Assembly (NCBI RefSeq): GCF_003334405.1
Contig: NZ_QOWM01000001.1
Reading direction: 5' to 3' (one strand)
DNA length: 64,000 bases
DNA from: Escherichia coli
GTDB lineage: Bacteria > Pseudomonadota > Gammaproteobacteria > Enterobacterales > Enterobacteriaceae
Within the stretch, counting starts at the first letter, position 1. The number at the start of each line of letters is the position of its first letter. A program made the position numbers and the translations under genes. The notes beneath the pieces were generated by a model that was given only the letters and a program-made list of their open reading frames with translations, searched no databases and was not told the DNA's origin. Below are positions 54,542 through 55,507 of this stretch, piece by piece.

Positions 54542-55507
54542 TTATACCTCCATTTTCTTCATTGTTTTCGAGGTTCTGTATTCCGGAATAGTGGTAACAA
54601 TTGCACCGACCAGTGCAAACAGTGTTCCGATGATCGTGACCAGATAAACGCTATTGCCCAGCGATGGAATTAATACGTCAATCAATACTGATCCCAGTAA
54701 CTGGCCCGCCGTTGAAGCAACCCCCAGCATCAGTAACCCCAGACCTCTGACCAAAATGGCCATTAAACCGATAGACATTAGTCCAAGCGGGCCGCCAAGA
54801 TACATCCACCAGACATCTGGTAATTGAACAGTGACGTGCCCTAATGCGACACGAATAGCTAGCGCTGTGCCTAAAACACAAAATCCAACGATGAAATTCT
54901 AGGTGATTGAAACCAGCATGGATCCCGTAGCTTCAGCTACTTTTGCATTTCCAGCGGGCTGCCATCCTGCAAGCAAACCAGCTAAGAACGGAAGAATGGC
55001 AAGTAAGATGAAAGAGGTAGAATGCCACTGAGGTGACACAACAAAAATCGTAGCAATAACCGCAAATAATGCACCGATGATGCGATAAGGGGTAAAGTAT
55101 TTTTTCTCGTCGACACCGATACCAAAGCGATCGCAAAGTAAACCAGACAGCAATAGCGCGGAGATCAGTGCGGTTTGAAACGTTGCGACCCCGAGTGCGC
55201 TGGCTGATGCGCCTTCAGAAAATACCACCATCGCTCCACAGAGACCGGCAAACCAGTTCCAGAGAGGAACTTTTCGGTTTTTAATCAGAGAAGGAATTGC
55301 CGCAAATTGTTGCCGGGTTTCTTTTCGCGCCATAATAATAAAAAACATCACGACTAAACCACTGGCAAAGGAGATAACTGCGCATGCATTACCATCCTGT
55401 AACCAGTGACCTAATTGACCATTCACCGCTGATTGCATAGGGGAGAGCATACCCGCAAGAATCGTGGCAAGCATCCATAAGGGAGTTGAGTACTTATTCT
55501 TTTTCAT
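54542..55507 (-). pseudogene. Polytopic inner-membrane permease (DMT-superfamily-like, possibly fused DUF606 pair) interrupted by an in-frame TAG
   Basis: ORFs 54899-55507 and 54542-54805 are in the same frame; hand translation across the junction reads ...MLVSIT*NFIVGFCVLGTALAIRVALGHVTVQLPDVWWMYLGGPLGL...; single TAG at 54899-54901. Confidence 0.55.

Follow-up and report, generated by a model that had tools for sequence, protein, structure and literature searches.

The interrupted permease gene found in the window (the whole 64,000-nt stretch of Escherichia coli DNA analysed here) is very probably a nonsense pseudogene, fixed in its lineage, of an STM3549-type DMT_YdcZ transporter in which an amber codon occupies the place of Trp203 (W203*). 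This E. coli gene, orthologous to Salmonella STM3549, belongs to the fused two-domain transporters of the DMT_YdcZ (DUF606) family, and the window copy is a pseudogene of that family, not a functional member. As in nonsense pseudogenes generally, the stop differs by one base from a sense codon present in intact alleles and in orthologues, and the lesion is inherited and is not an artefact. Since this disrupted allele is fixed across hundreds of sequenced strains and has already been annotated as a pseudogene by RefSeq/PGAP, W203* corresponds to ordinary gene decay in an accessory island. For annotation, the site is best labelled as a pseudogene (W203*), since neither a pair of genes nor a site of recoding nor an error is present; it has little further import. 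The location of the features discussed below is given in Table 1.

Table 1. Features of the transporter pseudogene, its operon and its surroundings (positions are those of the window).
Feature	Position	Strand	Description	Basis
Whole pseudogene	54542..55507	-	321 codons with one internal TAG	Translation, Pfam, RefSeq
Premature amber codon W203*	54899..54901	-	TAG	Intact-allele comparison, orthologues, allele counts
Part still translated	54902..55507	-	202 aa	ORF list, Pfam boundaries, hydropathy
Part now untranslated	54545..54898	-	Codons 204-321	Translation, Pfam, start/SD scan
Phosphotriesterase-related protein (PTE, STM3550-like)	53505..54539	-	344 aa, intact; downstream of the transporter	RefSeq
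GATase1_like protein (STM3548-like)	55564..56322	-	252 aa, intact; upstream of the transporter	Pfam PF07090, E 1e-111
DeoR-HTH + PfkB ribokinase-like kinase (rikA/STM3547-like)	56336..57550	-	404 aa, intact; first gene of the operon	NCBIfam
ISL3-family transposase remnants	51478-53093		Three ORF pieces; 3' flank of the operon	
Gamma-glutamyltransferase C-terminal fragment	about 53137-53361		3' flank of the operon	
tRNA-Asn (GTT)	63031-63106	-		ARAGORN

A single amber codon within the transporter reading frame

Translation of the minus strand between 54542 and 55507 yields 321 codons followed by a terminal TAA. Codon 203 is the only internal stop; the plus strand reads CTA there, at 54899-54901, and the gene strand TAG. 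The initial annotation had described this TAG as breaking a 321-codon frame whose two halves stay in the same frame, and the translation bears this out. In the list of open reading frames the gene appears as two pieces, one of 202 aa (54899-55507, with an ATG at 55507) and one of 87 aa (54542-54805), whose ATG at 54805 corresponds to Met235 of the full frame. This second ATG had been reported to lack an obvious Shine-Dalgarno (SD) sequence, and inspection of the 20 nt upstream of it (AATTACCAGATGTCTGGTGG) leads to the same result, the sole purine-rich motif, GGTGG, abutting the ATG with no spacer in between. The ATG itself is thus real, yet it lies 32 codons past the stop and not at the stop, in a gene carried by the minus strand. 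A scan of in-frame ATG, GTG and TTG codons after the TAG detected none before codon 235, and no spaced SD was found there.

Intact alleles encoding 321 aa are known in E. coli (WP_000739825.1, WP_000739816.1 and WP_000739815.1). They share the locus beside cobUST and display 99.0-99.4% nucleotide identity with the window copy over the 966-bp gene, but differ from it at codon 203, which is TGG in these alleles and TAG in the window. Within this codon the difference is confined to nt 608 of the gene, which base-by-base comparison found to be A in the window and G in the intact alleles of four loci (L003, L004, L005 and L015). The mutated base corresponds to position 54900 of the window, with T on the plus strand and A on the gene strand where intact alleles have C and G, respectively. 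Judged from these sequences, the TAG can be taken to have arisen from the Trp203 TGG via one G>A transition.

A fused two-domain DMT_YdcZ transporter

When codon 203 is read as Trp, a domain search of the resulting protein finds the Pfam DMT_YdcZ domain (PF04657, formerly DUF606) twice, at residues 10-154 (E 3.7e-30) and 169-303 (E 1.3e-15), separated by a linker at residues 155-168. Full-length homologues of this repaired protein score down to E 1e-199 and, together with the two Pfam domains, place the 321-codon frame far beyond chance. The NCBIfam search returned no family for the transporter or for the GATase1-like protein. The arrangement of two domains in a single chain with a short linker is that of the fused DUF606/DMT_YdcZ transporters (PF04657; Lolkema et al. 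2008), which are full length and encoded by an uninterrupted ORF, whereas the window copy is interrupted by the TAG at codon 203 and ends inside its second domain.

The stop falls ca. 35 residues into this second domain, which spans it. A crude Kyte-Doolittle scan gives eight clear peaks over both halves of the transporter, for a family with nominally 5+5 helices, and two of these peaks (approximately 163-181 and 205-223) flank the stop. The 202-aa product would therefore retain the first DMT_YdcZ domain in full, the linker and, from the second domain, its first helix, while codons 204-321 encode the remainder of that domain, about four helices.

Twenty full-length homologues were aligned, from E. 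coli, Citrobacter, Salmonella, Klebsiella, Pectobacterium, Proteus, Anaerobiospirillum, Bifidobacterium and several Lactobacillaceae. Each is a single polypeptide of 314-342 aa, and Trp203 is kept in all 20, down to 63% identity, within a block (GSMLVSITWNFIVGF) that is highly conserved among them. The S. enterica protein P0005, an uninterrupted chain of 323 aa, shares 92% identity with the window protein once codon 203 is repaired, whereas the window copy itself is cut short by W203*. In Klebsiella and Lentilactobacillus the transporter gene has likewise been called as one ORF.

The transporter is also unusually well conserved across phyla, with 63-67% identity to the aligned Bifidobacterium and Lactobacillaceae proteins (P0076-P0110). 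In Lentilactobacillus (locus L008, 6172-9110) it lies directly downstream of a GATase1_like gene, as in the window, but the genes that come after it encode a CBAH-family (PF02275) hydrolase and an amidase in place of the PTE. These arrangements suggest that GATase1_like and DMT_YdcZ form a horizontally mobile two-gene module with varying partner enzymes.

Distribution of the TAG allele in E. coli

A 1251-bp query taken around the gene has matches in 2125 of 5426 complete E. coli genomes, many of them at 100% identity. The two alleles were then separated with a 69-nt query centred on codon 203, for which one mismatch brings the identity below 99%, so that they are cleanly distinguished. Among the 2039 complete E. 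coli records that hold the site, the exact TAG 69-mer occurs in 599 (about 29%) and the exact TGG 69-mer in 1428, with 12 records matching neither allele. Several independent assemblies of the O104:H4 outbreak strain carry the TAG, as do STEC isolates and isolates obtained from pigs and cattle on several continents. The truncated 202-aa product is also represented in a separate collection of proteins, as a cluster (P0114) of 685 member sequences. The TAG genomes that were sampled share 99.8% identity or more. With 599 exact TAG 69-mers found next to 1428 exact TGG ones, the TAG allele is real, heritable and common. TAG/TGG may also serve as a modest marker, as E. coli strains with the cobU-adjacent island fall into the two types at roughly 30:70.

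[quoted passage not shown] In that record it is flanked by genes for a phosphotriesterase-related protein on one side and for a glutamine amidotransferase on the other, and a PfkB family carbohydrate kinase is encoded further upstream. The operon annotation is the sole part of the strain 720632 record that was used here.

The operon and its relation to the Salmonella rikA locus

In the window, the transporter is the third gene of a cluster in the order DeoR-PfkB kinase, GATase1_like, DMT_YdcZ and PTE, which is the rikA-type order. The corresponding Salmonella locus, rikA (STM3547)-STM3548-STM3549-STM3550, has been described in a 2026 paper (PMC13432705) in which RikA is a PfkB-type ribose kinase whose ribose activity may be a side activity. 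RikA is the only product of the locus characterised there; STM3549 is given as a DMT transporter, and the locus is reported as conserved in Citrobacter, Escherichia, Budvicia and Proteus (PMC13432705). STM3547-STM3550 and the window operon share both gene order and domain content.

The natural stop of the transporter gene is separated from the start of the PTE gene by 2 nt (junction ATGGAGGTATAATCATG), and the GGAGG SD sequence of the PTE gene sits within the last transporter codons. In the kinase, NCBIfam matches correspond to an AgaR-type HTH at residues 3-61 and to ribokinase at residues 94-387. The Salmonella kinase as made may start at Met90 (PMC13432705); the window kinase also has a Met at residue 90 (HSTMKSQ...), and the same question of one or two products applies to it.

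The four-gene order is identical in Klebsiella (loci L006/L007, 9163-14966), where the cluster adjoins genes for a relaxase, a NikA-like protein, a DUF932 protein and a Hok/Gef toxin, neighbours which indicate a location within a mobilisable element or next to one. The 4385-6172 gap of L006 contains no called kinase gene and may correspond to another broken rikA.

Repeated decay of the operon

A second nonsense allele of the same gene occurs in UTI89 (locus L002), in which CAA>TAA at codon 25 (Q25*, L002 position 2536, equivalent to 55435 of the window) likewise kills the gene by a single nonsense transition. The UTI89/NU14 group accounts for the 42 complete-genome records with Q25*, an allele that affects another codon in another lineage when compared to W203* and its 599 records. 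RefSeq presents it as a shortened CDS of 294 aa initiated at a downstream start, and not as a pseudogene. In UTI89, the kinase gene is frameshifted as well.

Lesions also occur in the other genes of the operon. GSH8M-2 and BEN5202 have an intact transporter and a kinase with a stop or a frameshift. Among genomes carrying the TAG, SH21PTE31 has a frameshift in the kinase, ET846 has an IS5-family insertion in the amidotransferase and a stop in the kinase, and Survcare321 and M21170 have frameshifts in both of these genes. Lesions of the kinase or the GATase are found in TAG and TGG backgrounds alike (loci L003, L004 and L011-L014), and all four genes are intact only in some strains, for instance PK8241 and L9. 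These data indicate that the rikA-type operon is decaying repeatedly in E. coli, and work on its physiological role is best done in strains with an undamaged set of the four genes.

Predicted fate of the truncated transporter

The ancestral product would have been a single 321-aa inner-membrane transporter composed of two fused DMT_YdcZ/DUF606 domains, presumably serving the four-gene rikA-type operon as its permease. A G>A transition in one E. coli lineage would then have turned the TGG of the invariant Trp203 into TAG. Unless suppressed, translation of the transporter mRNA must stop at codon 203; it is predicted to end after 202 residues with loss of the remaining helices of domain 2, and nothing downstream appears able to restart it. 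According to the account of Lolkema et al. given in PMC3962082, fused DUF606 proteins derive from pairs of fixed opposite orientation and not from dual-topology homodimers. Because the two antiparallel domains would together represent the transport unit, as the architecture of the family suggests, the fragment is not expected to form a working transporter and the operon would have lost its permease. On sequence grounds, the transporter is almost certainly non-functional. The 354 nt of mRNA left untranslated could in addition lower expression of the downstream PTE via polarity, although the GGAGG ribosome-binding site of the PTE gene itself is retained.

Alternatively, the 202-aa protein might retain a function, for instance as a homodimer formed through the first domain, in which case the allele would represent remodelling and not loss. 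Residues 10-154 do make up a complete DMT_YdcZ domain, the allele is common among carriers of the site, and the other three genes of the operon are intact in the window. This possibility is nonetheless highly improbable, since an isolated N-terminal domain would lack its antiparallel partner, given the origin of the fused form as presented in PMC3962082 (Lolkema et al.), and since all four of the other TAG genomes sampled have kinase lesions, three of them together with an amidotransferase lesion, pointing to a dead operon. Equally little credence can be given to the idea that the W203* product works on its own, the fused antiparallel transporter having naturally reverted to half size; if true, the usefulness of such a form would explain how the allele reached about 29% of carriers.

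A further possibility, which we regard as extremely unlikely, is that a suppressor tRNA or programmed recoding lets ribosomes pass the amber codon and that full-length transporter is still made. The frame that follows the stop is still open over 118 codons, and supE-type suppressors do occur in E. coli. However, ARAGORN detected no suppressor tRNA in the 64-kb window, the sole tRNA there being a tRNA-Asn, and the stop is conserved in no orthologue. An exact match to glnV with the supE-type CTA anticodon occurs in 155 of 5424 genome records, and the carriers among the 60 matches listed are K-12 laboratory derivatives (among them C600, DH5alpha, DH1, J53 and S17-1); the operon is absent from the region beside cobU in K-12 MG1655, which has a CP4-44 remnant there instead. 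Private SNPs point the same way, within a very small sample: in the four other TAG genomes there are three, all located past the stop and all non-synonymous (too few for a test), as would fit an untranslated region. They affect nt 658, 788 and 800 of the gene, resulting in V220I, V263G and A267V, the latter two in the conserved LGVASTAGQ block. Among the backbones carrying an intact allele, 6 of 10 variable sites are synonymous. For the nonsense pseudogene that is favoured here, 118 open codons and three intact neighbours are what is expected of a shallow lineage, and do not by themselves prove a loss of function.

The two ORFs could also be viewed as a deliberate split into half-transporters that join as a heterodimer, in the manner of paired DUF606 genes, an option raised in the initial annotation. 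According to Lolkema et al. (2008), as cited in PMC3962082, the family includes single-domain homodimers, heterodimeric pairs encoded by adjacent genes and fused two-domain forms; the statement that DUF606 proteins often occur as pairs thus holds for the family, and each of the two pieces in the window is still an open reading frame. It does not apply to the window gene. In a split pair each gene encodes one complete domain of ca. 140 aa and the break falls between domains, while here the stop at residue 203 is located within domain 2 and outside the linker, leaving an upstream product made of domain 1 and one stray helix. A second gene of a pair has its own start and ribosome-binding site near the first stop, while here the first start is codon 235, from which a downstream piece of 87 aa with ca. 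three helices and no SD could begin, and domain 2 is complete in neither of the pieces. Finally, far from being split uniformly at the equivalent position, the orthologues are all single proteins (20 of 20 with Trp), and in 1428 E. coli records the gene is uninterrupted with Trp at codon 203. Domain boundaries, the start/SD scan and the single-chain orthologues together leave this option with next to no probability.

Sequencing or assembly error, with a sense codon as the true base, had been proposed as well, and a one-base difference is the type of change that errors make, but the idea is hardly tenable and is refuted by the identical TAG 69-mer in 599 complete-genome records sequenced independently by many laboratories from many hosts and countries. 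What stands from the same set of proposals is the inactivating mutation, with TGG in intact alleles and in all orthologues; the qualification of this mutation as recent holds in relative terms only, in view of the 599 records.

Genomic setting of the operon

In strain 720632, the operon lies in an island littered with IS elements, a few kb from cobU-cobS-cobT. The window shares 99.5% identity with this strain over 10.5 kb; the operon is collinear and the left flank is not, so that the window represents a different strain. On the 3' side of the operon, each E. coli copy examined has a fragment of the gamma-glutamyltransferase gene and a pseudogene for an ISL3 transposase. As the same remnants occur in all of these copies, the damage to the ISL3 element and to the gamma-glutamyltransferase gene predates the TAG mutation.

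Going by the gene order of MG1655, the tRNA-Asn detected in the window is located at what we take to be the asnV position, beyond ldtA-cobTSU. This match to the asnV position would place the cobU-side island in the region of the asn-tRNA island hotspot.
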